From sequence record PX393110.1: a stretch of 64,000 bases of DNA. The stretch is one strand, 5' to 3'. Positions within the stretch are counted from its first letter, which is position 1; the number at the start of each line of letters is the position of its first letter. Positions 23,999-62,270 of this stretch are shown in pieces. This stretch comes from a phage. The notes below the pieces were generated by a model. The model was not told the DNA's origin. It did not search any database and saw nothing but the letters and a program-made list of their open reading frames with translations. A program made the position numbers and the translations under genes.

Positions 23999-24053
23999 CA
24001 GACTCAGTATCCGTAAGTGTAATTTGACTTTCCATGATTAAGGACTAATTTTC

Positions 24054-25481
24054 ATGACTAAGCAGAATATCGTGCTGTCTAACGTCGACGAGGCTTCCGC
24101 AGATGTAATGGCTAACGCCTACTTCGACAAATACAGCGAACAAATGGATGCATACGCATCTAACTCCATCCTGGCTCGCGTTAACGAAAGCCTGTCTCCG
24201 TTCGAAATGATCGCTGTAGGTCAGACTCTGGACCAGTACCAAGGTTACCAGAAGTATGTCAACGAATCCATGAGCGGCCTGGCATCTATGGGTGCTATTC
24301 CGGCAATCGCTCTGGATGTTATCACCGCATCTGTCGGTAACTCTATCCTGCCTCTGGTCTGCTCTATCCAGCCGATCCCTGAAGAGCATGGTATTGTTTA
24401 CTATCGCCAGATTAAAGCATCCCAGACCTCCGGCGGTTACACTGCAGGCGACGTGATCCGTGATCCGCTGTCTCGTGATAATCCTGGTGAAGGTACCCTG
24501 GGTGCCCAGCGTCGTCAGCAGGTAATTGGTACCGGTAACGGCAGCGAAACTAACTTCGCCGCTACTCTGGAACTGTATCCGGTTCGTCCGAACATGGTCT
24601 TCGTCAACATCCCTGGTGTTGGTAACGGTCAGGACGACGGTAACGGTAAGATCCTGGGCTTCGGCTTCGATGGTACCATCAACTACAAAACTGGCGCGAT
24701 CACTATCGCAGCTAAAGCAGCTGTTCCTAACACTGCTCAGGTTGCTGTTCGCTTCGACGTTGATGTTGATCTGCTGGATAACCTGGATAAAATCCAGGCT
24801 GGCCTGATCTCCAAAGATATCCGTGCGGAAATCTGGACCCTGGCTGCTGATATCGGTACCTTCGCTAACTTCGCCTTCCAGAACCGCTTCGGTCGTTCTG
24901 CAGAAGATGAAGTCGCATCCGATCTGTCCAACGAAATCACTAACGTTCTGAACGTTCGTGCTATCAAACAGATCGCTGCGATGGCTATCGGCGAAACTAT
25001 CTGGGATCAGACTCCTCCTGCTGGTGTTTCCTATGCGGAACACAAACTGACTCTGGTTGATACCTTCGCTCGTGCTGAATCCGTGTTGCACAACAACGCT
25101 GGTGTAGGCTCGGTGAACCGTATCATCTGCGGTCGCTCTGCTGCTGCGGTATTCCGTGGTATGCCTGAGTTCACCCCAGCAGGTCAGTCTGTCGGTACTT
25201 CCGTATCTCTGTATGGCTTCTACGACGGCGTGCCGGTAATTCGTGCAACTGGTGTTATCGAAGATAACGCTGCTTATCTGATCTGCAACCCGGACGGTTA
25301 TTTCAACTGCCCGCTGGCATACTCTCCGTTCATGCCGCTGATCGTTACCGATACCATCCAGAACCCGAACAACCCGTTCCGCGGTACTAAAGCTGCTGGC
25401 GTTTGGGCTGGTATGACCCAGCTGAACCCGAACCTGGTAACCAAACTGACCTTCAAACTGGCTAACTTCTCTGGTAGCTAA
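24054..25481 (+). CDS. Major capsid protein
   Basis: 475 aa immediately after the scaffold and followed by a strong terminator; codon usage biased toward a highly expressed gene. Confidence 0.7.
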   Translation: MTKQNIVLSNVDEASADVMANAYFDKYSEQMDAYASNSILARVNESLSPFEMIAVGQTLDQYQGYQKYVNESMSGLASMGAIPAIALDVITASVGNSILPLVCSIQPIPEEHGIVYYRQIKASQTSGGYTAGDVIRDPLSRDNPGEGTLGAQRRQQVIGTGNGSETNFAATLELYPVRPNMVFVNIPGVGNGQDDGNGKILGFGFDGTINYKTGAITIAAKAAVPNTAQVAVRFDVDVDLLDNLDKIQAGLISKDIRAEIWTLAADIGTFANFAFQNRFGRSAEDEVASDLSNEITNVLNVRAIKQIAAMAIGETIWDQTPPAGVSYAEHKLTLVDTFARAESVLHNNAGVGSVNRIICGRSAAAVFRGMPEFTPAGQSVGTSVSLYGFYDGVPVIRATGVIEDNAAYLICNPDGYFNCPLAYSPFMPLIVTDTIQNPNNPFRGTKAAGVWAGMTQLNPNLVTKLTFKLANFSGS

Positions 25482-29066: not shown

Positions 29067-29257
29067 TGTCTGAACAAAATAAAACCGACGCCCCAGTTAG
29101 CGAAAAGGTTCGCCTGTTCTCTATTGTGGATCATGACGTCGAGATCACCATTAAAGGTGGTCAAACTATCCTCGTTCCTCCGAAGGGCATCCTGAAAGAT
29201 GTTCCTAAAGAGTGGCTGGAAGATGTCAAACTTCCCGCTGGCGTTAAGATGAAATAA
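29067..29257 (+). CDS. hypothetical small protein (63 aa; start refined)
   Basis: The track ORF begins inside the upstream gene; the ATG at 29067 follows the upstream stop and has a GGAGA RBS. Confidence 0.4.
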
Positions 29258-29267
29258 GGAGATTTAA

Positions 29268-31067
29268 ATGTCTGCACCACGCGTAAGCTATGCGGAGCGC
29301 GATCTGAGTGCGTACGTTCCTGCTACTGAGACTATTTATGCGGCTATCGTAGTTGATGCTGTTAAAGGTCCGGTAGAGAAACCGATCGTGCCTGGCAATG
29401 CTCCCAACTTCCTGAAAATCTTTACGCCAAATGAGCAAATCGACATCGGTATGTCTACTGCGCACTTCTCTGCGCTGACCGTGTTGGAGAAATACTCCAG
29501 CGTGGTAGTAGTCCGTGCTGCCTCTGCTGATGCTCGCTATTCCGGCGCTCTGGTAAATAACGACGGTACCGTCGTTACCGCCAGTGATATTAAAGATCCG
29601 TCTGCAGTGGATATGGACGATGAGTCCTTCCTGATTGCCGCAGCTAACCAGGGTCTTTGGGGTGATGAACTCCGCTTCCAGGTACTCGGCTATAAAGCTA
29701 CTGAGACTGTCTCTGTAACTGGCGGTATTCTTAAGTCTACCCAGAAATGGGGTGCTGGTTATCCGGTTAAGTTGGCTGGGTCTAACCTGCCTGCTGAAGT
29801 AAATGATTATACCACTTACTTCGCAGTTCCGGCTACCGGTGGTATTAAACTGGCTACCAGCCGAGCTAATGCTACTGCATCTACTCCGGTCACACTGACC
29901 GTGTCCGATGCCACTGGCGTTATCGTATCTCCGGCTGTGGAGTACACCAAGACTCCTAATACCTTCAATCTGCGGGTATTTAAAGCAGACGATCTGGTTA
30001 ATCCGGTGCTGGATGTAATCGGTTCTAAGATCAATGGTCTTAAGGATCCGGACAATAAGTCTCTGTACATCGAAGATGTTACTGCCGACAATATCTATGC
30101 TCAGGTGTTTAACAACCCTCTGAATACTGATCCGGTAGCCGACATCGTTATCCCAGCAGCATTGGGTGGTGGTTCTAACGGATCTCCGGTTACCGATGGC
30201 GACTGTATTCGTGCTCTGAACAAGCTCAACAACCCTCGTGAATTCGCCATTAAAGTGATCATGAACGGTGGCCGTACTTCTCAGGCTTACGGTTCGGCAA
30301 TCATCGCTCTGGCAGAGTCCCGTGCTGACTGCGTCGGTATTACCTCGGTTCCTCTGACTGCACAGGGTGGCGTATCTCCTGCTCAGTCTATGGTTAACTA
30401 TCGTAAGCACGACACTAACTGGGATACCAGTTATGCTGCCATGTATGCGCCTCACGTTAAGATCTACGATCGTTACAACGACCGTAATCTGTGGGTATCT
30501 CCGGACGGTGTTGCGACGAAGGCTATCTTCGATACTGCGTCTAACTTCGAGATCTGGTACCCAGTTGGTGGTAACAAGCGCGGTGTGGTTAACGTGCTGG
30601 ATACGTACGTACACCTGCTCGATTCTGACCAGGATCTTCTGTATGATGCGGGTATTAACCCTATCGTATTCGAAGAAGGCGAAGGTATCAAGATCTGGGG
30701 TCAGAAGACTCTTCAGTATGCCAGCTCCATGCTGGATCGTCTGAACGTCCGACTCCTGCTGGTTACCATCGGTCCGGCTATCCGTAAACTGTTGGCGAAC
30801 TTCCTGTTCGAATTCAACGATGCGGATACTCGTGCACTGGCTAAAGGTATGGTCGATACCTATATGGATTCGATCATGGCTCGTCGTGGTGTTACTAAGT
30901 ACGTCACTATCTGTGATGATACCAACAACACTGCAAGCGATGTGGATAACCATATCCTGAGAGTAAGCCTGCTGGTTTGCCCGAATAATTCGACCGAATA
31001 CATCCCTCTGACTATTGGTATTACCAATAACAGTGTGGACTTCGATCTGGCCGCGGAAGCACTGTAA
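29268..31067 (+). CDS. Tail sheath protein
   Basis: 599 aa, strong RBS AAGGAG, immediately upstream of a 174-aa tube-sized protein; myovirus synteny. Confidence 0.6.
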   Translation: MSAPRVSYAERDLSAYVPATETIYAAIVVDAVKGPVEKPIVPGNAPNFLKIFTPNEQIDIGMSTAHFSALTVLEKYSSVVVVRAASADARYSGALVNNDGTVVTASDIKDPSAVDMDDESFLIAAANQGLWGDELRFQVLGYKATETVSVTGGILKSTQKWGAGYPVKLAGSNLPAEVNDYTTYFAVPATGGIKLATSRANATASTPVTLTVSDATGVIVSPAVEYTKTPNTFNLRVFKADDLVNPVLDVIGSKINGLKDPDNKSLYIEDVTADNIYAQVFNNPLNTDPVADIVIPAALGGGSNGSPVTDGDCIRALNKLNNPREFAIKVIMNGGRTSQAYGSAIIALAESRADCVGITSVPLTAQGGVSPAQSMVNYRKHDTNWDTSYAAMYAPHVKIYDRYNDRNLWVSPDGVATKAIFDTASNFEIWYPVGGNKRGVVNVLDTYVHLLDSDQDLLYDAGINPIVFEEGEGIKIWGQKTLQYASSMLDRLNVRLLLVTIGPAIRKLLANFLFEFNDADTRALAKGMVDTYMDSIMARRGVTKYVTICDDTNNTASDVDNHILRVSLLVCPNNSTEYIPLTIGITNNSVDFDLAAEAL

Positions 31068-42738: not shown

Positions 42739-45648
42739 ATGGGTGCTTATCAGGGTAAAAATCAGTACGTAGAGGACATCTATACCTTCGAACGTACTGA
42801 CAAAGTGTCGGGTGGAGATGACGGTATTGATAACGTACCCATTAAGAATCTCACCGACAGAACTACATATCTCCGTAGTTTAGCATTGAATTCATTCCTG
42901 GATATCTATGGGGTTAATCCTGTAGGTACTTTCGGAATAGGGTTTGATCTTCAGGAATCTGGGGACGGAGTGTACGATGAGGTATCTGGCAAATGGTATT
43001 ACTGGCTGGGCTCCTTCCCCAAATCTGTTGCCGAGAACTCATCTCCGGAAGATACTGGAGGTATTTTCGACCCAGAAAGTAATCCTGATGGGTTATGGAC
43101 TGAGGTAATTCCGGTAAACCAGCGTCAGGTGGACATGATAGCTCGGGCATTCAGAGTTAAGACAGAGGAAGTCCAGTTCATGAAAGTAGGTCGTCCTCTC
43201 GACGGCTTTCGTGTACTGTATGACTTAACTTCTCAGGAAGCCTATCGTTTGCCGATGGATATTCCAGAAGGATCAACTGTCGTCAGTCTAACAGCTGGTG
43301 GATGGCTCGTACACAGCAATGGTGGGGTGGACTTATCTGCCTATGCTGTTGAATTAGAAGAGTACAAGCACTTTACTGGGGGAGACTTCAGTACTGGCTT
43401 TACTCTACGTCAGAACCACTGCGTAGTTATGTATGACGGTGTTATGTATCGCTGGGATGGGGATTTTCCTAAAACAGTAAATGACAACAGTACTCCCGAA
43501 GAAGATGGTATCGGTGAAGGTAAATGGGTGGCGGTGGGTCCAAATTCCAAATTGCTTTATAACATTACCTGGGATGGATCATATCCAGATCAACCAGTTA
43601 TGGACGACCGCACCCAGAGATTAAATCTACCACTACCGGTTCAAACTAATAAACTGGTGGATGACGTTGTACGTCTGCGCGAGACCATTTCAACTCTGGA
43701 CGAGAAGGTGGCTACCGTTGGAAACGATGGTAAGATCCCGGTCGAGCAGATCCCAGCAGTAGCTATAACTGAAACATTTCCTGTCTCGAGCCAGGATGAG
43801 ATGTTGGCTCTCAATGCCCAGAAGGGAGACATTGCCATCCGTGACGACAATAGCCTGAGCTACATTCTGATGAATGAGCCAGCTTCCACGTTGGAAAACT
43901 GGAAGAAGTTCAAGAATGACGCTCTGGTGCAGTTAGGTAAGAACGGCGGTGTGAATCTGGTTAGTGGAGCTATCCATGCAGCCACGGATCAGGATTCACT
44001 TACTTTCGAGAACATAACAATTTCCGGTGAAGTATATAGTCACGACCCTAGCATATCTGGATTGGTTGAAGGATTCTCTGTCTATAACGGTAATTTATAT
44101 CTCACTCGCAATCAGATATCTTACAAGCTGTTGTCCAAAAGAAATAAGTTGCGCTGGCCTGGTCTGTACCTCTCTGGTGTAACTGATATGAAATCTTCGA
44201 TTGAGGCCATTATGAGCCATGGCCTCCACGTTGATCTTGATGGGAATGCTATCAGCGTATCTACCTTAAATATCACCAAAAATCTTTATAATGGTGAAAT
44301 CATTGCTACTGGAGATACCGGCTCGTTCATTACTGTGAACTCGTGCAAGCTGCTTAGAACCAGGATCAACTGTAACAATAAGGCTATACGCCGTGCTGTG
44401 CATCTGAAAACTGGTTCAATCCGTCCTACTTTGAAAAACACTGAGATTTTTGACAGTTCCGGAGCTACTAATGCAAATGGTGTCTTTATTGACGCGAATA
44501 ACATCACCGATTTCCTAGTAGAGGGCGTGTATGTCCATAATCTCACCTCTGTAGCTAATGGATCACAGGGAGATGCAGATGGTCCGTGCCGTGGGATTAT
44601 CGTTGGCACGGCTCTTGACCCAGCGCCATCTGAGGCCACGGTATCTAGCGGAGAAATTAATAATGTACGTATCCGCGACTTGGCACCTTTCGAGGACTGC
44701 GATGGTGTTGTGGTTCAGATTTACGATGCCTCGTCTGTAATGCTTAGAGCATCTAAAATCCGCGTCAAAAACGTTGATACTCACAATGTCAGGAAGAGAG
44801 CCGTCAAGATTCAGGCGAACGATGTCACCGTGAGCAACGTCTATGCTTATTGCGATACAACCGATACAGCAATGTATTCAATCGTCAGTCTATATGGTGA
44901 TAATGGGTATGCTGAGAATGTCACCGGACGAGGACGCATCAGTAATGGCATAGATTGCGCTTACGGCTTCAACAGAGTTAGCACACTTCACCTTAAAACC
45001 GAACGCACGGGTGCCGATACCCTTGCTGGGATTGGAGCAGGGTTGCTTATCAACTCCGGGCAAGTGGAAGCCAGTGGTATCTATTCCGAAGGTGCGGAAT
45101 ATGTTCTTGCTATCAGGGATGCCCTTGGCGTGACACCTTACGTCAAAGTCTCTGGTCTTCGCGGGCAGGGTTACAGCGGAGTGGCTCGTTTCCAGATACG
45201 AGCCGGAAACTCTATCGGCAGCGTTTACATTGACGACGTTTCGGCAAATTCCTCGGCAACAAATAAATCGGCGATATCCGTAGACATAACGTCCAATGGA
45301 ATAGGACTGGTAAATATCTCGGACGTGAAACGACTAAGTCAGCCATTCACCGGAGCAGACATTAATATGTCTGGGGCTGTCACGGAGGCAATTTTCCGCG
45401 ATTGTATTCTAAATTCTGGAAGCTCTACTGTTGGTATTTCCATGGCAACAGGAAAACTGACTGTTGAGAATATCAGTGCCCCTAGTAAGACGTATGCAGT
45501 TCAAGCTGTTCAGACGAGTAATTCATGGCTGAATAATATCGACGGAATAGTGCGTCTTGAGAATACGGCGAACACCAGACTTGGCCTCTATCGCGGAGTT
45601 TCTTCAGCTGGCACAAACACTGGTCTTCTCACGTTGAATTATGCGTAA
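42739..45648 (+). CDS. Tailspike protein (969 aa) with shared N-terminal module and beta-helix-like C-terminal region
   Basis: N-terminus GGDDGIDNVPIKNLTDRTTYL...SGKWYYWLGSFPKSVAENSSPEDTGGIFDP; long repetitive region consistent with a depolymerase-type spike. Confidence 0.55.
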   Translation: MGAYQGKNQYVEDIYTFERTDKVSGGDDGIDNVPIKNLTDRTTYLRSLALNSFLDIYGVNPVGTFGIGFDLQESGDGVYDEVSGKWYYWLGSFPKSVAENSSPEDTGGIFDPESNPDGLWTEVIPVNQRQVDMIARAFRVKTEEVQFMKVGRPLDGFRVLYDLTSQEAYRLPMDIPEGSTVVSLTAGGWLVHSNGGVDLSAYAVELEEYKHFTGGDFSTGFTLRQNHCVVMYDGVMYRWDGDFPKTVNDNSTPEEDGIGEGKWVAVGPNSKLLYNITWDGSYPDQPVMDDRTQRLNLPLPVQTNKLVDDVVRLRETISTLDEKVATVGNDGKIPVEQIPAVAITETFPVSSQDEMLALNAQKGDIAIRDDNSLSYILMNEPASTLENWKKFKNDALVQLGKNGGVNLVSGAIHAATDQDSLTFENITISGEVYSHDPSISGLVEGFSVYNGNLYLTRNQISYKLLSKRNKLRWPGLYLSGVTDMKSSIEAIMSHGLHVDLDGNAISVSTLNITKNLYNGEIIATGDTGSFITVNSCKLLRTRINCNNKAIRRAVHLKTGSIRPTLKNTEIFDSSGATNANGVFIDANNITDFLVEGVYVHNLTSVANGSQGDADGPCRGIIVGTALDPAPSEATVSSGEINNVRIRDLAPFEDCDGVVVQIYDASSVMLRASKIRVKNVDTHNVRKRAVKIQANDVTVSNVYAYCDTTDTAMYSIVSLYGDNGYAENVTGRGRISNGIDCAYGFNRVSTLHLKTERTGADTLAGIGAGLLINSGQVEASGIYSEGAEYVLAIRDALGVTPYVKVSGLRGQGYSGVARFQIRAGNSIGSVYIDDVSANSSATNKSAISVDITSNGIGLVNISDVKRLSQPFTGADINMSGAVTEAIFRDCILNSGSSTVGISMATGKLTVENISAPSKTYAVQAVQTSNSWLNNIDGIVRLENTANTRLGLYRGVSSAGTNTGLLTLNYA

Positions 45649-45653
45649 CAGTG

Positions 45654-45673
45654 CCCCCGCTGCTTGGCGGGGT
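45654..45673 (+). terminator. Possible terminator or structural hairpin after the tailspike gene
   Basis: CCCGC-TGCTTG-GCGGG hairpin immediately after the stop; no clear U-run. Confidence 0.3.
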
Positions 45674-45863
45674 CCCACCAACCGGAGGTCAACTACACTT
45701 ATGAATAAGGTATCCATAAAGTTTAGTAGCCTGATTTATGGCAGGTTCACGCTATCTACAAAAAGTGAAAATCATAGTCATAATGTAGGTGATTATGATT
45801 TTAACCAAGAGGAACTTACTCTCTGGTTTGGGAATTAGTATATAATATATTATAGGTGAATAA

Positions 45864-48848
45864 ATGTCTTATAATCCGATCTTAGAAGGATCAACCTGGC
45901 CGGAGACTATTCGTCGCTTAGAAAAGACGGATAGGGCGGAAGGTGGGCCACTAGTTACTAATTCTGAGGATGAACCAGTATCTGGACATATTAATCATCC
46001 AATAACTCAGTTAGCTACCAGAACTTCCATTTTAAAAAAGTATAATTTATCGATAATTAATAACACTAAAGAACAGTGGAAATTATTACTCGGTGACTTA
46101 GGACTAACTCTTGTTGGTACTTTTGAAGAAGGCGCTACTACTAACAGCAAGACTGATGCTGTTTGGCATATTGCTGGTGGTCAGTGTTACGTGTGGGGTG
46201 GTTTACTCCCTAAGACTGTATATGCTAACTCCACACCGCTAACTACTGGTGGTATCTCTGCTGATGCTTGGGTTAGTATTGGTGATGCCGCACTGCGAGG
46301 GCAAATATCAGACCCGGACGGTGCGACAAAATACCCTGAATTGCAGATTGCTAGATGGCGTGACACTTTTGACCCTCGCGGTTGGGGAGCTAAAGGTGAT
46401 GGATTAGTTGATGATACTGTGGCTCTTAATAATCTGTTAAACGCTGCGCCAGTGGGTCAGAAAATTAATGGTAACGGTAGAACCTATAAAGTATCTGTGC
46501 TTCCAGATATTAGCCGATTCGTCAACACTCGTTTCGTTTATGAGCGTATTCCTGGCCAGACGCTTTATTATGTGTCTGACGAGTTTGTTCAGGGTGAGTT
46601 AATTAAAATAACCGACACGCCTTATTACAATGCCTGGCCGCAGGATAAAGCGTTCGTTTACGACGATGTTATTTACTGTCCGTTCATGGCTAGCGATCGG
46701 CACGGGGTTAGCAGGCTGCATGTATCCTGGGTTCGCTCAGGTGATGACGGACAGACCTGGACGACCCCGGAGTGGCTAACCGACCTGCACCCTAATTACC
46801 CGACAGTTAACTATCACTGTATGAGTATGGGTGTGATGCGCAACCGCCTATTTGCGATGATTGAAACCCGTACATTGGCATCTAACGCACTGGTGACTTG
46901 CGAGTTATGGGATCGGCCCATGTCCCGTAACTACCATCCGACAGGTGGCATCACAAAAGCCGCCAACCAGCCTGTGGCTGTAATTACCATCCCTGAACAC
47001 GGTCTTTTTGCTGGGGATTTTGTTAACTTCTCAAACTCTGGGGTGACTGGCGTTTCAGGGAATATGACTGTAACTTCAGTTATTGACCGCAACACGTTTA
47101 CAGTTACCACGCCAAATCAACAAGCATTCGACCAAAATAACTCTACCAGCCGCTGGCATATGGGGACATCGTTCCATCAGTCACCATGGCGTAAAACCAG
47201 CCTTGGATTGATCCCCATGGTTACCGAGGTTCACAGTTTTACCGCCATCAATAACGATTCATTCATGATGGGATATCACCAGGGTGATGTTGCTCCGCGT
47301 GAAGTCGGTATGTTGTATTTTCCGGATGCGTTCAACAATCCTGGGCTTTATCAGAAACGGCATATTCCTGCTGAATATGAGCCAGATGCGGCAGAACCCT
47401 GCGTTAAGTATTTTGACGGTGTTCTTTATGTTGTAACCCGTGGAACCAGGTCTGATCGTCTTGGTAGTTCTCTGCATCGCAGTAGCGACCTGGGGATTAC
47501 CTGGCAATCACTGAGGTTTCCGAATAACGTCCACCACTCTACCCTGCCATTCGCTAAGGTAGGAAACGAACTGATTCTTTTCGGCACCGAACGCGCCGAC
47601 AACGAGTGGGAAGCAAACGCACCGGATCAACGATATTTCAGTTCTTACCCACGGACGTTCTACACGAGAGTGAACCTCGACACCTGGAACCTGAATAATA
47701 CTCAGTGGGTAAATATCACTGATCAGATTTATCAGGGTGGTATTGTTAACTCTGGCGTCGGTGTCGGATCGGTCGTCGTGAAAGATAGTTATATCTATTA
47801 CATGTTCGGTGGGGAAGACCATCTGAACCCATGGACATATGGAGATAACTTAGAGAAAGACCCATTCAAATCAGACGGTCATCCCTCAGATTTGTATTGT
47901 TACAAAATGCAGATCGGTCCAGACAATCGTGTTTCTCGTGATTTCAGGTACGGTGCTGTACCTGACAGAGCGGTTCCAGTGTTTTTTGATACGAATGGAA
48001 TTCGCACTGTTCCTGCGCCTATGGAGTTCACCGGTGATTTAGGGTTAGGTCATGTGACCATTAGAGCCAGCACCAGTAATAACGTTCGCTCTGAAGTTTT
48101 AATGGAAGGTGAGTATGGGTTTATTGGGAAATCTGTACCTACTAATAACCCAGCAGGACAGCGCACCATATTTTGCGGTGGCGAAGGAACCAGTTCTTCT
48201 ACTGGTGCACAGATTACGCTTTATGGTGCTAATAACACAGCTTCTCGCAGGATAGTTTACAACGGAGCTGAGCATCTGTTCCAGACTGCTGACGTTAAGC
48301 CTTATAACGATAACGCGATTGCGCTCGGTGGGCCTAGCAACCGATTCACTACTGCATACCTCGGAAGCAACCCTATTGTTACTTCTAACGGGGAGAAGAA
48401 AACAGAGCCGGTATTTTTTGACGATGCTTTTTTAGATGCTTGGGGCGACGTTCATTACATCATGTACCAGTGGTTGGATTCTGTACACTTGAAAGGAAAT
48501 GACGCTAGAATTCATTTTGGCGTAATTGCTCAGCAGATCCGCGATGTATTCATTGCTCACGGTCTGATGGATGAGAATAGCACGGATTGCCGCTATGCCG
48601 TTCTGTGTTACGACAAATATCCTCGCATGACAGACATGGTGTTCTCTCACAATGAAATCGTTGAACACACTGACGAGGAGGGTAATGTAACTACCACGGA
48701 AGAACCTGTATACACCGAGGTGGTTATTCACGAAGAGGGTGAGGAGTGGGGTGTGCGGCCTGATGGAATTTTCTTTGCTGAGGCAGCATTCCAGAGAAGA
48801 AGACTGGAGAGAATCGAAGCCAGACTTTCCGATCTTGAAAAGAAATAG
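45864..48848 (+). CDS. Endosialidase-like tailspike with C-terminal intramolecular chaperone domain
   Basis: 994 aa; N-terminal W-G-P-K module variant (GQCYVWGGLLPKTVYANSTPLTTGG); two Asp-box (BNR) repeats SGDDGQTW and SSDLGITW; C-terminal DDAFLDAWGDVHYIMYQW...IHFGVIAQQIRDVFIAHGL typical of peptidase S74-type chaperone domains. Confidence 0.65.
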   Translation: MSYNPILEGSTWPETIRRLEKTDRAEGGPLVTNSEDEPVSGHINHPITQLATRTSILKKYNLSIINNTKEQWKLLLGDLGLTLVGTFEEGATTNSKTDAVWHIAGGQCYVWGGLLPKTVYANSTPLTTGGISADAWVSIGDAALRGQISDPDGATKYPELQIARWRDTFDPRGWGAKGDGLVDDTVALNNLLNAAPVGQKINGNGRTYKVSVLPDISRFVNTRFVYERIPGQTLYYVSDEFVQGELIKITDTPYYNAWPQDKAFVYDDVIYCPFMASDRHGVSRLHVSWVRSGDDGQTWTTPEWLTDLHPNYPTVNYHCMSMGVMRNRLFAMIETRTLASNALVTCELWDRPMSRNYHPTGGITKAANQPVAVITIPEHGLFAGDFVNFSNSGVTGVSGNMTVTSVIDRNTFTVTTPNQQAFDQNNSTSRWHMGTSFHQSPWRKTSLGLIPMVTEVHSFTAINNDSFMMGYHQGDVAPREVGMLYFPDAFNNPGLYQKRHIPAEYEPDAAEPCVKYFDGVLYVVTRGTRSDRLGSSLHRSSDLGITWQSLRFPNNVHHSTLPFAKVGNELILFGTERADNEWEANAPDQRYFSSYPRTFYTRVNLDTWNLNNTQWVNITDQIYQGGIVNSGVGVGSVVVKDSYIYYMFGGEDHLNPWTYGDNLEKDPFKSDGHPSDLYCYKMQIGPDNRVSRDFRYGAVPDRAVPVFFDTNGIRTVPAPMEFTGDLGLGHVTIRASTSNNVRSEVLMEGEYGFIGKSVPTNNPAGQRTIFCGGEGTSSSTGAQITLYGANNTASRRIVYNGAEHLFQTADVKPYNDNAIALGGPSNRFTTAYLGSNPIVTSNGEKKTEPVFFDDAFLDAWGDVHYIMYQWLDSVHLKGNDARIHFGVIAQQIRDVFIAHGLMDENSTDCRYAVLCYDKYPRMTDMVFSHNEIVEHTDEEGNVTTTEEPVYTEVVIHEEGEEWGVRPDGIFFAEAAFQRRRLERIEARLSDLEKK

Positions 48849-48968
48849 TAAATAAAGCTTTTTTACCGTAGGTAGGGGGGCTTCAATTTAAGATTTAACT
48901 TAAACCAATTACCACTCTAAAGTTACTAAGTATTTGTACATCATGTAATATTTTTATGGAGATCACCA

Positions 48969-51590
48969 ATGGGCGGTCGTTCTAGGTTATTTAGCGAACT
49001 GGGCGGAGCTCCTCTTAATACTTATCAGCATGATAATCAGACTCTCGATATTCGCGAGTTAGAGAGTCAGCAGAAAGTATTAGACGAGACTCTTGCCGAA
49101 ACAATCGGCGATGTTAGCGAACTACAGCAGACTGCTGGACAGTCTATGTATATCCTCGGTAACTACGCTGCTGGAATGGTGATCGAGAACGACCGCCAGT
49201 ACGTCAGACATGAGAATCTGCTGTACTACTGGACTGGTCCTGTACCGTTTACCACTACTGGTAACTTCTACGAAGAATCCTACTGGACTGGTGGGGTGCA
49301 GAGTGGTATCGAATGGAGCTACGAAGTACAGGAAGATGGTGAGTTTGAGTTTGAAGTACCATACTCCTTCACCAGCGTACGCCTGTTCGTGGGTGGCGCT
49401 CGCCTTACTCGCGTAGAAGATTACACTATCGATGTGATTAATCGCAAGATCACTCTGACTAAGATTAAACTGTCGAAGGGCGTCCTGGTAACTGCCGAGC
49501 TGAATTCTCGTGATGCTCTCAGCGTTACCCAGGATCGCATCGATAGCCTTACCAGAGAGATCTCAGAGAAAGTAGGCTTTGTTAACTACAAACTTACTGA
49601 TCTGTCGGAAGGTCAGAGCCTTACCCTAACTACCAGAGTTCAGACTGTAAGCTTCTCACTAAATGGGGAGTATTACAAATGGGATGGTGTTCTTCCTAAA
49701 GTCGTTAACTATGGAGATCCGGAACCAGCTCAATCTGAGCAGGGTACTGGTAAGTGGATTCCTGTAGGTTCTGGCGCCTTGAAATCAGAACTGGGCAAAG
49801 TCAGCGACACTACTGGAGCGGTTCTTGTAGCTCTACCACAAGGCGGTAACGTGGCGAACGGTATTCGCTATGTAACTCCCGAAATGGCTGGTGCTAAAGG
49901 AGATGGTACCACTGATGACACCACAGCCGTTCGTAACGTTGTAGCTCTCGCCAAATTAACTGGTCTTAAAATCACCGGTGGAGCGAACTATAAGATCTCG
50001 AATGCTTCAATCGATATCTCTGGTACTGTCATTGAGAACCTACGTCTTAAAGGAAGTGGGTCTAGCTCTATACTGCTAGTTAATGGCAATACTGCCATAT
50101 CTAATCTAACCCTAAATAGGGTAGGTATTAGACACACTAACGGTATCTTAAACCTGGACAAATTTGAGATCAATGACTGTAGTGCTACTGCGGCTATTTT
50201 AAGCCTTCAGCTAACATCACCTGGACAAATATTTCTCACCAATGGTGTTATGCGTCGTTGTAATTACGGTTACCTTCGTCAGGGATCTCCAGCTTCTTCC
50301 CAGCCGCTGACTACTTCATTACTTCGGAATTTACAATTCTTCGATATGAAGGGTGATCCAATCGAGATCAATCTGGCGATAGCTGATACCAACACTACTA
50401 TCGATCAAATAACCATAGATAACGTGGACTCCACAGCTACCGGGAATACTAACTGGGGTATTGCTATAGGCTTAGCTGGGATGGGTAACTACTCACCCAC
50501 TGCCGCAGACTCAGAGTACATGTCTGATGTAACCATAAGTAATATTAAGATTACCGGAGCCAAACAGTGTCTGCACTTGGAGAAATGCAGAAACATTAGA
50601 ATCAGAAATATCGACATACATCCGGATTCCACTAAGTCAACCGGAGTTGGGTTGGATACTGGTGGTTTCATAGCTTATGGATGTAAAGAGATATACGTGG
50701 ATGGTGTAACTGGGTCTCCAACCAACGGAACGGAAGATATGATTCGTTTCGCTTGGGGATCTGTTAACAATGCGTTTACCTTCGCTCATCGAAATGTGCA
50801 CTTAAGAAACGTCAATGTAACAGGTACTGTTAAAGTGGAGGTTAGCTGTTCTGATACCCTAGCTTCGACTGTAGAGATGAGAAATATCAATGCAACAACG
50901 ATATCTCTCCAAGGCATGGCGTCTGAATACCAGCTGTCAGATTGGTCCGCTGAGAAGATGGTGTTGGATTTCAGATATGTTAGCGGAGATGCTAGAGATA
51001 ATTACCGTAGAAATGCGTGGTCAATTGCTACCATCAGTAATTTGAAATGCCTGAATTCTAACACTGGCGCTCCTGAGGTTACTGTACAGAACATCACTGT
51101 GGATACATTGGAAGTTTCTGGGTGTAACTTCCCTATCCAGAAGACTTTAACTGCTACCCATTGGAGAGGAACTCCTGCATGGCGGCAGAATGGTATTATT
51201 TACCACTCTAAGACCGGAACTCCTTATGGCATGGCTCTTCTTGCTGGTGACACTATCGTTGCTAGTGACGGAACTATGTTCACGGTGACCTCCCCTGGAG
51301 CTCTGTTCTACTCAAACGAAACTGTTGCGGCCGCTACTGCTGGGTCTAACGCTATTCGTTCTAAAACTAACCTTAACTGGACTGGTCAGTATTATAAGAC
51401 TGCTGGGTGTAAGGTTAAAATAGCAGGAGGTGGAGGTGCTGACGGCTCTGATTACATCGGTACTATTGTCCGCAGTGGTTATATTAACAGTGGTAATTAC
51501 TACTTTGATGTTTACCCACCACTTCAGTCTAACGTACCTGATGGCGCAGTATTAACTTCCGTAGAAGTACCAGCCTTTAAAACAGTTTAA
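48969..51590 (+). CDS. Tailspike / tail fibre protein (873 aa), beta-helix-like
   Basis: W-G-P-K motif (YYKWDGVLPKVVNYGDPEP); repeated short beta-rung-like segments. Confidence 0.5.
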   Translation: MGGRSRLFSELGGAPLNTYQHDNQTLDIRELESQQKVLDETLAETIGDVSELQQTAGQSMYILGNYAAGMVIENDRQYVRHENLLYYWTGPVPFTTTGNFYEESYWTGGVQSGIEWSYEVQEDGEFEFEVPYSFTSVRLFVGGARLTRVEDYTIDVINRKITLTKIKLSKGVLVTAELNSRDALSVTQDRIDSLTREISEKVGFVNYKLTDLSEGQSLTLTTRVQTVSFSLNGEYYKWDGVLPKVVNYGDPEPAQSEQGTGKWIPVGSGALKSELGKVSDTTGAVLVALPQGGNVANGIRYVTPEMAGAKGDGTTDDTTAVRNVVALAKLTGLKITGGANYKISNASIDISGTVIENLRLKGSGSSSILLVNGNTAISNLTLNRVGIRHTNGILNLDKFEINDCSATAAILSLQLTSPGQIFLTNGVMRRCNYGYLRQGSPASSQPLTTSLLRNLQFFDMKGDPIEINLAIADTNTTIDQITIDNVDSTATGNTNWGIAIGLAGMGNYSPTAADSEYMSDVTISNIKITGAKQCLHLEKCRNIRIRNIDIHPDSTKSTGVGLDTGGFIAYGCKEIYVDGVTGSPTNGTEDMIRFAWGSVNNAFTFAHRNVHLRNVNVTGTVKVEVSCSDTLASTVEMRNINATTISLQGMASEYQLSDWSAEKMVLDFRYVSGDARDNYRRNAWSIATISNLKCLNSNTGAPEVTVQNITVDTLEVSGCNFPIQKTLTATHWRGTPAWRQNGIIYHSKTGTPYGMALLAGDTIVASDGTMFTVTSPGALFYSNETVAAATAGSNAIRSKTNLNWTGQYYKTAGCKVKIAGGGGADGSDYIGTIVRSGYINSGNYYFDVYPPLQSNVPDGAVLTSVEVPAFKTV

Positions 51591-60513: not shown

Positions 60514-61137
60514 TTAGAAACGATCGCGACCTATGATTGGTGCGACTGGTTTAAAGTCAGTCTGGTCGTAACCTTTGTAAAGGTCGTAGCCACCACCAGC
60601 AACCTCAGTAAAGTAAATCTGACCGATGCGCATGTTAGAACGCAGTCGGATAGTGTTAGGGCTTAGGTTAACAATCTCTAGAGTAAATGCTCCCTTGAAT
60701 CCAAAGTCCCCGAAACCTGCACTGACATGGCTCAGTATTCCCAGACGACCCATAGTGCTGCGACCGTCGTAATGCTGACAGAATGCCACACCACGGTCTA
60801 CAGTGCTGTTACGGTATCGTGGGTCATAATGCTCGAACCACTTCTCAGGCAACATGGTAGTACAGTCGATACGTTCAGATGCTGAGCCTAAGATGAACTC
60901 CCCAGGTTTAAGATCGTAGTATAGTGCCTCTACCTCGCGATACTCCGGAAGAGTACATGGTTTATAGGGATCTACTACATGGCCATCAGGCATCTTTTGA
61001 GGAACCAGGAAGAACGGAGCTAAGCGTACATCTACACTATTCTGTCCGATTCGTGGTTCCTGATTGTCCAGATAACTGTGATAGGTCCATAATCCTTGAG
61101 TAATTGCCTGCTCAATATAAGATTTACCAAGGATCAT
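60514..61137 (-). CDS. dcd: dCTP deaminase family protein
   Basis: VDVRLAP and GRSTMGRLGILSHVSAGFGDFGFKGAFTLEIVNLS align with the dCTP deaminase/dUTPase-fold signature. Confidence 0.65.
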   Translation of the reverse strand: MILGKSYIEQAITQGLWTYHSYLDNQEPRIGQNSVDVRLAPFFLVPQKMPDGHVVDPYKPCTLPEYREVEALYYDLKPGEFILGSASERIDCTTMLPEKWFEHYDPRYRNSTVDRGVAFCQHYDGRSTMGRLGILSHVSAGFGDFGFKGAFTLEIVNLSPNTIRLRSNMRIGQIYFTEVAGGGYDLYKGYDQTDFKPVAPIIGRDRF

Positions 61138-61340
61138 TACGGATGCTCCAGCATGTTCTTAACAGATTCTTCATCTGTAGCTTCTACAGTAGCATTATTA
61201 TTATTATTATTATTATTATTCTTGAATGTGCCCCAGATATCATCAGACACGATCATAGTCTTGGGAGCTAAGTGCTCCGAACGAATAACCGTAATCTGGT
61301 TACGATTAAGATCCTTAGTTAGTTGCTCAATATCCATCAT
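61137..61340 (-). CDS. Small protein with a 9-residue poly-Asn tract (start refined)
   Basis: The track ORF begins at a TTG at 61391; ATG-ATG at 61340 has GAGGAA upstream; the poly-N is encoded by (AAT)9. Confidence 0.35.
   Translation of the reverse strand: MMDIEQLTKDLNRNQITVIRSEHLAPKTMIVSDDIWGTFKNNNNNNNNNATVEATDEESVKNMLEHP
61184..61210 (-). repeat. Perfect trinucleotide repeat (AAT)9, i.e. (ATT)9 on the plus strand, inside a CDS
   Basis: 27 bp of uninterrupted ATT units read directly from the sequence. Confidence 0.95.
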
Positions 61341-61422
61341 ATTCCTCGGTTCTATGGTAGAATAACATTGACCTCTCCGCAAAGAGGTCAATAGTAATTA
61401 CCGTAGTCTAACTACCCCAGGA

Positions 61423-61893
61423 TTACTTAATCCCGGAATGGCCAAACCCACCGTCGCCACGTTCAGAAACATCAGAGAATTTATCCACAAGCTGGAGCTC
61501 TGGATGGATAACGGGAAGAAACACCATTTGAGCGATACGGTCGCCGTGGTTAATAACGAAAGATTCGTTACTACGGTTCCACACAGACACCATCAGTTCT
61601 CCTTGATAGCCGGAGTCGATAAGACCAACCAAGTTACCCAGTACGATGCCATTTTTATGGCCGAGGCCGCTGCGGGGAAGAATCACAGAAGCGATGTTCG
61701 GATCGCCGATGTTGATCGCTAGACCGGTAGGGACCAGGATAGTTTCGCCAGGATTTACAGCGATTTTATCGATTTCGTCAGTCTTAATCATCGCACGAAG
61801 ATCAAGACCAGCATCACCAGCTTTAGCGTATTTCGGTAACTCCAGAGAGTCGTCCCAGTTAATAGTTTTCTTTACTTGAACTACGGTCATCAT
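61423..61893 (-). CDS. dut: dUTPase (deoxyuridine 5'-triphosphate nucleotidohydrolase)
   Basis: Canonical motifs [30 protein letters not shown] and C-terminal [10 protein letters not shown]. Confidence 0.9.
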
Positions 61894-62270
61894 GATGCCC
61901 TTTTGTACTGTTTAATGAATGCTGCGCAGATGCTGGTGAAGAGGTGATCTTTGACTCGATGCTCTTCCGGCAACCGTGAATATGGAACCATACACGGGTG
62001 CGTCTTAGCTGCGAGATCTTTGATTTCTCCATACTTCCAGCCCTGCTCCTTTTTAGTTTTAACCCAGAATTCATGGGACTCTTCTGGGCTGATACGGTTA
62101 TTGTGTAAGCAGTTATACGCTCCATCAATAGCCGACTGTTTTATTTCATCGGATGTTGCTTCCCAGCTTAATTGGGTGAAGTCTCCGATAGAATGGCAGT
62201 ATGCACGATTAGCTTCGTGACACACCTTAGCCACCATCAATACGATTTCTTCTCGGGTCATATGAGACAT
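61890..62270 (-). CDS. hypothetical protein (126 aa)
   Basis: ORF track; ATGA overlaps on both sides. Confidence 0.45.

Follow-up and report, generated by a model that had tools for sequence, protein, structure and literature searches.

A lone (AAT)9 microsatellite in a small conserved gene of a mid-GC coliphage, and its probable origin by slipped-strand expansion

We analysed a stretch of 64,000 nucleotides of phage DNA (sequence record PX393110.1, hereafter the window) and found in it a single microsatellite, a perfect (AAT)9 repeat that encodes a run of asparagines inside a small conserved gene. This tract is probably the product of a lineage-specific, in-frame expansion by slipped-strand mispairing. 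The expansion would have taken place in a linker that tolerates changes in length, would have been neutral or nearly so, and would have turned the site into one of raised in-frame length mutation. We are fairly confident in this account, and weigh the alternatives below where the evidence bears on them.

A single microsatellite in the window

The repeat is a 27-bp perfect (ATT)9 on the + strand, at positions 61194-61220 of the window. It was retrieved by TRF (period 3, 9.0 copies, 100% matches) and by a regular-expression check, in agreement with the initial annotation, which had described a perfect and uninterrupted ATT/AAT repeat of this length. The coordinates proposed there (61184-61210) were nevertheless wrong by 10 positions, being too far to the left. 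Read on the - strand, the interval is (AAT)9, in frame with the open reading frame at 61137-61340, and thus encodes the nine consecutive asparagines that had been predicted (table 1).

We searched the whole window for simple sequence repeats (SSR) of at least 7 units for mononucleotides, 5 for dinucleotides, 4 for trinucleotides and 3 for tetra- to hexanucleotides. The tract was the only one found, and all the other trinucleotide repeats of the 64 kb have at most 3 units. The longest trinucleotide repeat in 200 first-order Markov simulations had 3 units in 163 runs, 4 units in 35 and 5 units in 2, and the expected number of 9-unit trinucleotide repeats of any kind in the window is approximately 3e-10. 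Hence, the tract is real and far beyond chance. The window has a GC content of 45.8%. All nine Asn codons of the tract are AAT, versus 48% of the 1017 Asn codons in the window's genes (0.477^9 = 0.0013), and the next-longest run of one amino acid in the same gene set has 4 residues. No secondary structure was predicted in the DNA of the tract (minimum free energies of -0.6 and -0.7 kcal/mol for the two strands).

Table 1. Features at and around the (AAT)9 tract (positions in the window).
Feature	Position	Strand	Details
dCTP-deaminase-like gene, 207 aa	60514..61137	-	downstream of the small gene; PF22769 DCD E=9.5e-24; phrog_1663 dCTP deaminase E=4.8e-25
TAATG overlap	61135..61139	-	one base in common between the stop codon at 61137-61139 (small gene) and the ATG at 61135-61137 (dCTP-deaminase-like gene)
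Small protein-coding gene, 66 aa	61137..61337	-	ATG at 61335-61337
(AAT)9 microsatellite	61194..61220	-	encodes Asn40-Asn48 of the 66-aa protein
Alternative upstream ATG of the small gene	61338-61340	-	would give 67 aa
Shine-Dalgarno-like GAGGAA	61342..61347	-	read from the sequence, 5' of the start of the small gene
Terminator-like hairpin, 12-bp stem	61366..61393	-	terminator scan; in the spacer between dUTPase and small gene (61341-61422)
dUTPase gene, 156 aa	61423..61893	-	upstream of the small gene; PF00692 E=1.9e-35; phrog_135 E=2.2e-58

The small gene, its neighbours and the wider window

The open reading frame that contains the tract reads ...DDIWGTFK-NNNNNNNNN-ATVEATDEESVKNMLEHP, with the Asn run inside. 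A gene at 61137-61340, between those of a dCTP deaminase and a dUTPase, had been proposed from the outset. Pfam confirmed both neighbours, and the interval is correct when counted from the first of two successive ATG codons. The second ATG is more likely to be the true start, because the codon alignment shows ATA in place of the first ATG in one relative (L008) and the spacing of the GAGGA motif suits the second. This motif lies 5-6 nt upstream of the ATG and is kept in 13 of 13 sequences, including the divergent L008.

We found homologues of the small gene in the Escherichia phages vB_EcoM_IME392 and EP_H11 and in ten Logan/ENA contigs, always with the same two neighbours. These 12 relatives form our comparison set, which holds 9 distinct DNA alleles when the window is included and 8 when it is not. 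The homologous proteins (P0001-P0006) are 77-86% identical, and pairwise Nei-Gojobori estimates for the 36 pairs of the 9 distinct DNA alleles gave a dN/dS between 0.05 and 0.25. At the 3' end of the gene, the TAATGAT that contains the overlap with the dCTP-deaminase-like gene is invariant in the 13 sequences, and the Pro codon just before it ends in G, A or C. The overlap has the geometry of translational coupling, which would run from the small gene to the dCTP-deaminase-like gene. Judged by its sequence, the open reading frame is a real protein-coding gene, and we infer its expression from the purifying selection, the Shine-Dalgarno-like motif and the coupling geometry. Two + strand open reading frames that run across the tract and would encode poly-Leu or poly-Ile (61096-61365 and 61104-61271) were rejected, since they are broken in the relatives. 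In public records, the IME392 genome (MH719082.1, about 106784-106969; positions 1738-1920 of our locus L001) has a conserved 60-aa gene that is present but unannotated between dCTP deaminase and dUTPase, and the counterpart in EP_H11 is annotated as a hypothetical protein (WBU87718.1).

The genes for dUTPase (dut), the small protein and the dCTP-deaminase-like protein (dcd) are all on the - strand. Directly upstream of dut, with overlapping stop and start codons, there is a gene for a RyR-domain protein of 126 aa (61890-62270, - strand; PF02026, E=5.8e-13), and this arrangement is kept in all relatives. The spacer between dut and the small gene contains a hairpin, TATTGACCTCTT-loop-GAGAGGTCAATG followed by TTATTCT, which was found once in the window. 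Its stem is invariant in 13 of 13 sequences and its loop of 4-5 nt varies (TGCG, TGAG, TACG, TAAG, TTCG, CATC). The spacer RNA folds at -30.8 kcal/mol (z=-4.4), and none of 200 shuffled sequences folded as well. A search of Rfam gave no match for this hairpin. Placed between these two genes, it is probably a terminator or attenuator, or else a site of processing, and it is not part of the repeat.

The position of the tract, 57 nt upstream of the dcd start codon in a coupled gene pair, raises the question of whether it acts on the DNA or RNA rather than on the protein. It could serve as a promoter-like -10 or UP element, or as a translational pause at nine AAU codons, and, given that the repeat has TAA stops in its -1 frame, modulate the coupled dcd-like gene. 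There are indeed sigma-70-like matches at 9 of 12 positions in which the tract provides the -10 element (ATGATA-17-AATAAT on the - strand and TCTACA-16-TATTAT on the + strand). However, matches of this quality are close to background (7 in the 2-kb region, versus 3.8 +/- 1.7 in its shuffles), and we rejected an internal promoter at the tract for this reason. Moreover, the relatives, none of which has the tract, keep the same operon layout, and the tract DNA forms no structure. We regard a regulatory role of this kind, including one through the -1 frame stops, as very unlikely.

The small protein has a conserved N-terminal part (residues 1-35), a variable linker (approximately residues 36-50) and a conserved acidic C-terminal tail (VEATDEESVKNMLEHP). 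In the alignment of the relatives the N-terminal part is invariant around ITVIRSEHLAPKTM-VSDDIW, as is the acidic tail. The linker has a dN of 0.24-0.41, i.e. 5-10 times that of the flanks (0-0.08 on both sides). An AF2 model built from a six-sequence alignment has a mean pLDDT of 59, with values below 50 over residues 43-54, a stretch that takes in the last two-thirds of the Asn run (residues 40-48). The tract thus sits in the least-constrained segment of the protein, a linker that is probably disordered. We also considered a prion-like domain. Such domains are extended low-complexity regions rich in Q and N that span tens of residues. This assignment was rejected, given that the protein has only 9 Asn in the tract among its 66 residues and that the flanks are not rich in Q or N.

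Searches for the function of the small protein retrieved one weak match, to PHROG 23599, a family of unknown function (E=7.1e-6, 26.9 bits, residues 15-64 against profile positions 6-54 of 60). Pfam gave no match even at E<=10, and neither did PDB sequence profiles, PADLOC or a search of the region in Rfam. We assigned no fold, because the AF2 model has low confidence and Foldseek found nothing below E=0.5 for it among viral structures. The sole credible distant homologue retrieved by a profile search of 1.84 billion representatives is a protein of 59 aa (P0009), which also matches PHROG 23599 (E=4e-7). The two proteins share the core I-x-V-I-R-x-x-H-L-A-P-x-T-M-x-V-S-D-D-I, but neither the Asn-rich linker nor the acidic tail of the small protein is present in P0009. 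The neighbourhood of its gene has no informative annotation and contains neither dut nor dcd. Four other candidates (P0007, P0008, P0010 and P0011) were rejected as spurious, being long repetitive proteins with many short repeated stretches, e.g. TVTVQQSEHLSPIS. They have 779-4641 aa, and each aligns to the small-protein profile over 7-16 short stretches, with E-values as low as 1e-20; the two that we read have repeat units with TVTVQQSEHLSPIS. This illustrates how scores summed over repeats can mimic homology.

Some observations concern the rest of the window. Two long open reading frames lie antisense to structural genes, in the codon-aligned antisense frame. One, of 569 aa (29244-30953, - strand), is opposite a tail-sheath-like gene (29268-31067, + strand), and the other, of 348 aa (24045-25091, - strand), is opposite a major-capsid-like gene (24054-25481, + strand). 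These two genes have no TTA, CTA or TCA codons, versus 15-34 per 1000 in the other large genes, and this strong codon bias explains why the antisense frames are open. Both are most likely mirror artefacts and not genes. Further along (42739-51590, + strand), there are three consecutive large tail-spike or tail-fibre genes, one of them with a colanic-acid-degradation domain (phrog_6117, E=4e-170). This set suggests a myovirus that uses several receptors and targets capsules.

The orthologous site and the origin of the repeat

The 12 relatives all have 3-4 mixed codons at the site of the tract, following the pattern AAT-[C/T]AT-(AAT)-AA[T/C]. The IME392-type allele is AAT CAT AAT (N-H-N) and is followed by the codon GCT. 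A second type is AAT TAT AAC (N-Y-N), and the EP_H11 type is AAT/AAC CAT AAT AAC (N-H-N-N). Only the window, among the 13 sequences, has (AAT)9, which makes its site longer by 18 nt than that of the IME392 type and by 15 nt than that of the EP_H11 type. The flanks of the tract are collinear with those of the relatives and the codon alignment has no other gaps. The initial annotation had expected in-frame length variation between isolates. This holds in part, since the site has 3, 4 or 9 codons and is always in frame. Hence, the relatives do not share one length, which would have counted against the expectation. What we did not find is a pure (AAT)n of another length, and the variation of the repeat itself amounts to one lineage-specific expansion.

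We looked for further alleles more widely. There were no other pure (AAT)n alleles of this site in the phage collection (phages/INPHARED), in the Logan and ENA assemblies, in IMG/VR, in the JGI metagenomes or in the GTDB genomes. A gapped pattern anchored in the flanks and a pattern for the conserved 3' end retrieved no further relatives in IMG/VR, the JGI metagenomes and the GTDB genomes. The exact protein of the window is absent from a collection of 15 billion proteins. Trinucleotide repeats of at least 4 units are also absent from 50 kb of IME392 and from the other loci. This last result indicates that the phage group is not generally prone to slippage. Because no relative has an intermediate or otherwise different pure (AAT)n, the case for recurrent slippage comes down to a single event.

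The history of the region has to be read in the light of recombination. The nearest relatives are approximately 92-94% identical over the dut-dcd block, and mismatch profiles against L001, L005, L006 and L009 indicate that this block, including the small gene, is a recombination mosaic. The window best matches the IME392 type at approximately 61320-60920 and the L006/L009 type at approximately 60820-60620, where it has 2-6 mismatches per 100 nt with the latter and 18-25 with the IME392 type. Around the tract and the small gene, the closest allele is that of the IME392 type, and therefore the simplest history is that CAT changed to AAT and six units were then gained. Both the ancestral state and the timing of these events are parsimony guesses, because the nearest relatives have only this level of identity and the region is mosaic.

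In this history, the ancestral site would be the AAT-CAT-AAT (Asn-His-Asn) that is still present in IME392-type alleles. A single C-to-A change would then have given (AAT)3, a perfect repeat of 9 bp, and slipped-strand mispairing during the replication of the phage DNA would have added six more units. Simple misalignment is the likely route because the tract DNA has no predicted structure, and for the same reason we rejected instability driven by hairpins. The expansion would have persisted because the unit is one codon, leaving the reading frame, the conserved N- and C-terminal parts of the protein and the TAATG coupling unaffected. It would have been tolerated because of its location in the least-constrained and probably disordered segment, and is probably neutral or nearly so, since this segment evolves fast and is predicted to be unstructured. 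The outcome would be a site of raised in-frame length mutation and a polymorphic marker.

Several features of the tract agree with this account. It is a perfect repeat beyond chance expectation, it uses a single codon throughout, and it differs from the relatives by whole units with collinear flanks, as slippage-made microsatellites do. Single-codon purity is the usual sign of an origin by slippage at the DNA level and not by selection on the amino acids. Assembly of the run by point mutations under selection on the protein is unlikely, because a mix of AAT and AAC would then be expected. What we infer is the slippage mechanism, the order of events, the neutrality of the expansion and the present-day instability of the tract.

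Selection on the length of the linker is the alternative that concerns the protein itself. A longer or more flexible polar spacer may have been favoured because it alters the activity of the small protein or its binding to partners, possibly in the setting of the neighbouring enzymes of dUMP supply, with slippage acting as a rapid tuning knob. The tract does lie exactly where the relatives already differ in length (3 or 4 codons) and in sequence, the dN of the linker exceeds that of the flanks by the factor given above, and the coupling geometry with the dCTP-deaminase-like gene is present in all relatives. Yet, relaxed constraint in a short linker would produce a high dN just as well, the expansion is found in one genome only, and the purity of the codon suggests a recent mutational origin. 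The small protein has no match in Pfam, PDB, PADLOC or by fold that would point to such an activity, and its distant homologue P0009 is not encoded beside dut or dcd. We thus consider adaptive tuning improbable. A stronger version, in which the tract is an actively unstable dial of linker length, in frame, in a small protein coupled to the dCTP deaminase of a dUMP-supply module, deserves next to no credence. If it were true, the repeat number would tune the handling of the nucleotide pool or counter a host factor from host to host, and the tract would report naturally on how an unusual polymerase slips when it copies a modified, T-rich template.

One may also ask whether the tract, or its length, is absent from the phage DNA and results from an artefact of sequencing, amplification or assembly. 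A single sequence carries it, and library preparation by PCR can introduce stutter at low-complexity AT repeats. Modified bases could add to this. The paper on phage Carin-5 lists IME392 among the phages with a YerA41-like DNA polymerase, and Table 1 of that paper gives dCTP-deaminase and thymidylate-synthase-like genes for 5-hmdUMP synthesis (PMC12686479). Because of the place of IME392 in this list, we suspect by analogy that the phage group of the window may carry hypermodified thymidine; in the relatives this might hamper amplification (PMC12686479). However, 27 bp is far below the length of a read, making collapse or expansion in assembly unlikely, and the insertion keeps the frame exactly, with orthologous sequence that is perfectly collinear on both sides. 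Furthermore, stutter shifts the length by a unit or two and cannot make a repeat from AAT-CAT-AAT. An artefact therefore seems highly improbable, and slippage in the phage lineage is the account that we retain.

Significance and comparison with known repeats

The slippage account involves no new mechanism, as the in-frame expansion of a triplet in a disordered linker is textbook behaviour. Its interest is that it would provide a clean and datable case of the birth of a microsatellite in a phage genome otherwise free of SSR, in which a point mutation completes a short repeat that then expands. It also indicates that the middle of the small protein tolerates a doubling of the length of the linker. 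The tract would be a ready hypervariable marker with which to distinguish stocks or lineages of the phage, even if the practical value of this is modest, and assemblies, primers and variant callers may give conflicting results there. Finally, it points to a small conserved gene that is unannotated in IME392.

Tracts of this length had been described in the initial annotation as rare in phage genomes. This is accurate for the genome studied here and for its relatives, where 50 kb of IME392 and the other loci have no trinucleotide repeat of 4 units or more, and it fits a survey of mycobacteriophage genomes in which the highest trinucleotide iteration reported is 9 (PMC6426759). Given this maximum, the tract is at the extreme for phages yet not unprecedented (PMC6426759). 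The description does not extend to viruses at large, where the tract is not unique: (AAT)9 is present in at least 120 IMG/VR contigs, which are mostly AT-rich and include many giant-virus MAGs (GVMAG). Among the matches listed, the median GC content of these loci is 27%, and it reaches 40% or more in 7 of 120.

In AT-rich eukaryotes such as Plasmodium and Dictyostelium, runs of AAT give rise to poly-Asn tracts. Those of eukaryotes and giant viruses resemble that of the window in being pure AAT runs in low-complexity and probably disordered segments, and they are made by slippage, as we propose for the window. They differ in their genomic context, since they occur in AT-rich genomes that have many such tracts, whereas the window, at its intermediate GC content, has exactly one.

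Another well-known class is that of contingency loci, the phase-variable SSR of Haemophilus, Neisseria and Campylobacter, in which slipped-strand changes in repeat number produce heritable and reversible variants. Like them, the tract is a simple repeat inside or near a gene. But contingency loci switch expression on and off through frameshifts or promoter spacing, whereas the unit of the tract is a codon. Every repeat number keeps the reading frame, and hence the tract is not an on/off switch; nor did we see a set of length alleles. We did not classify it as a phase-variable contingency locus, given the in-frame unit of 3 nt and promoter-like matches at background level.

A further likeness is with the SSR of other phages. 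In phages of the T7-group type these are mostly short, with 2-4 units. The study by Lin (2016) catalogues insertions and deletions of SSR units between the closely related phages T7M, T3, phiYeO3-12 and phiSG-JL2 (PMC4956903). As we propose for the tract, the gain and loss of units in these phages, also inside genes, is attributed there to slippage and adds to their divergence (PMC4956903). The tract differs from them in being a lone and pure trinucleotide repeat of 9 units in a genome otherwise without SSR. Among mid-GC coliphages it is thus out of the ordinary, yet its class is a familiar one, that of coding microsatellites that give rise to runs of a single amino acid.
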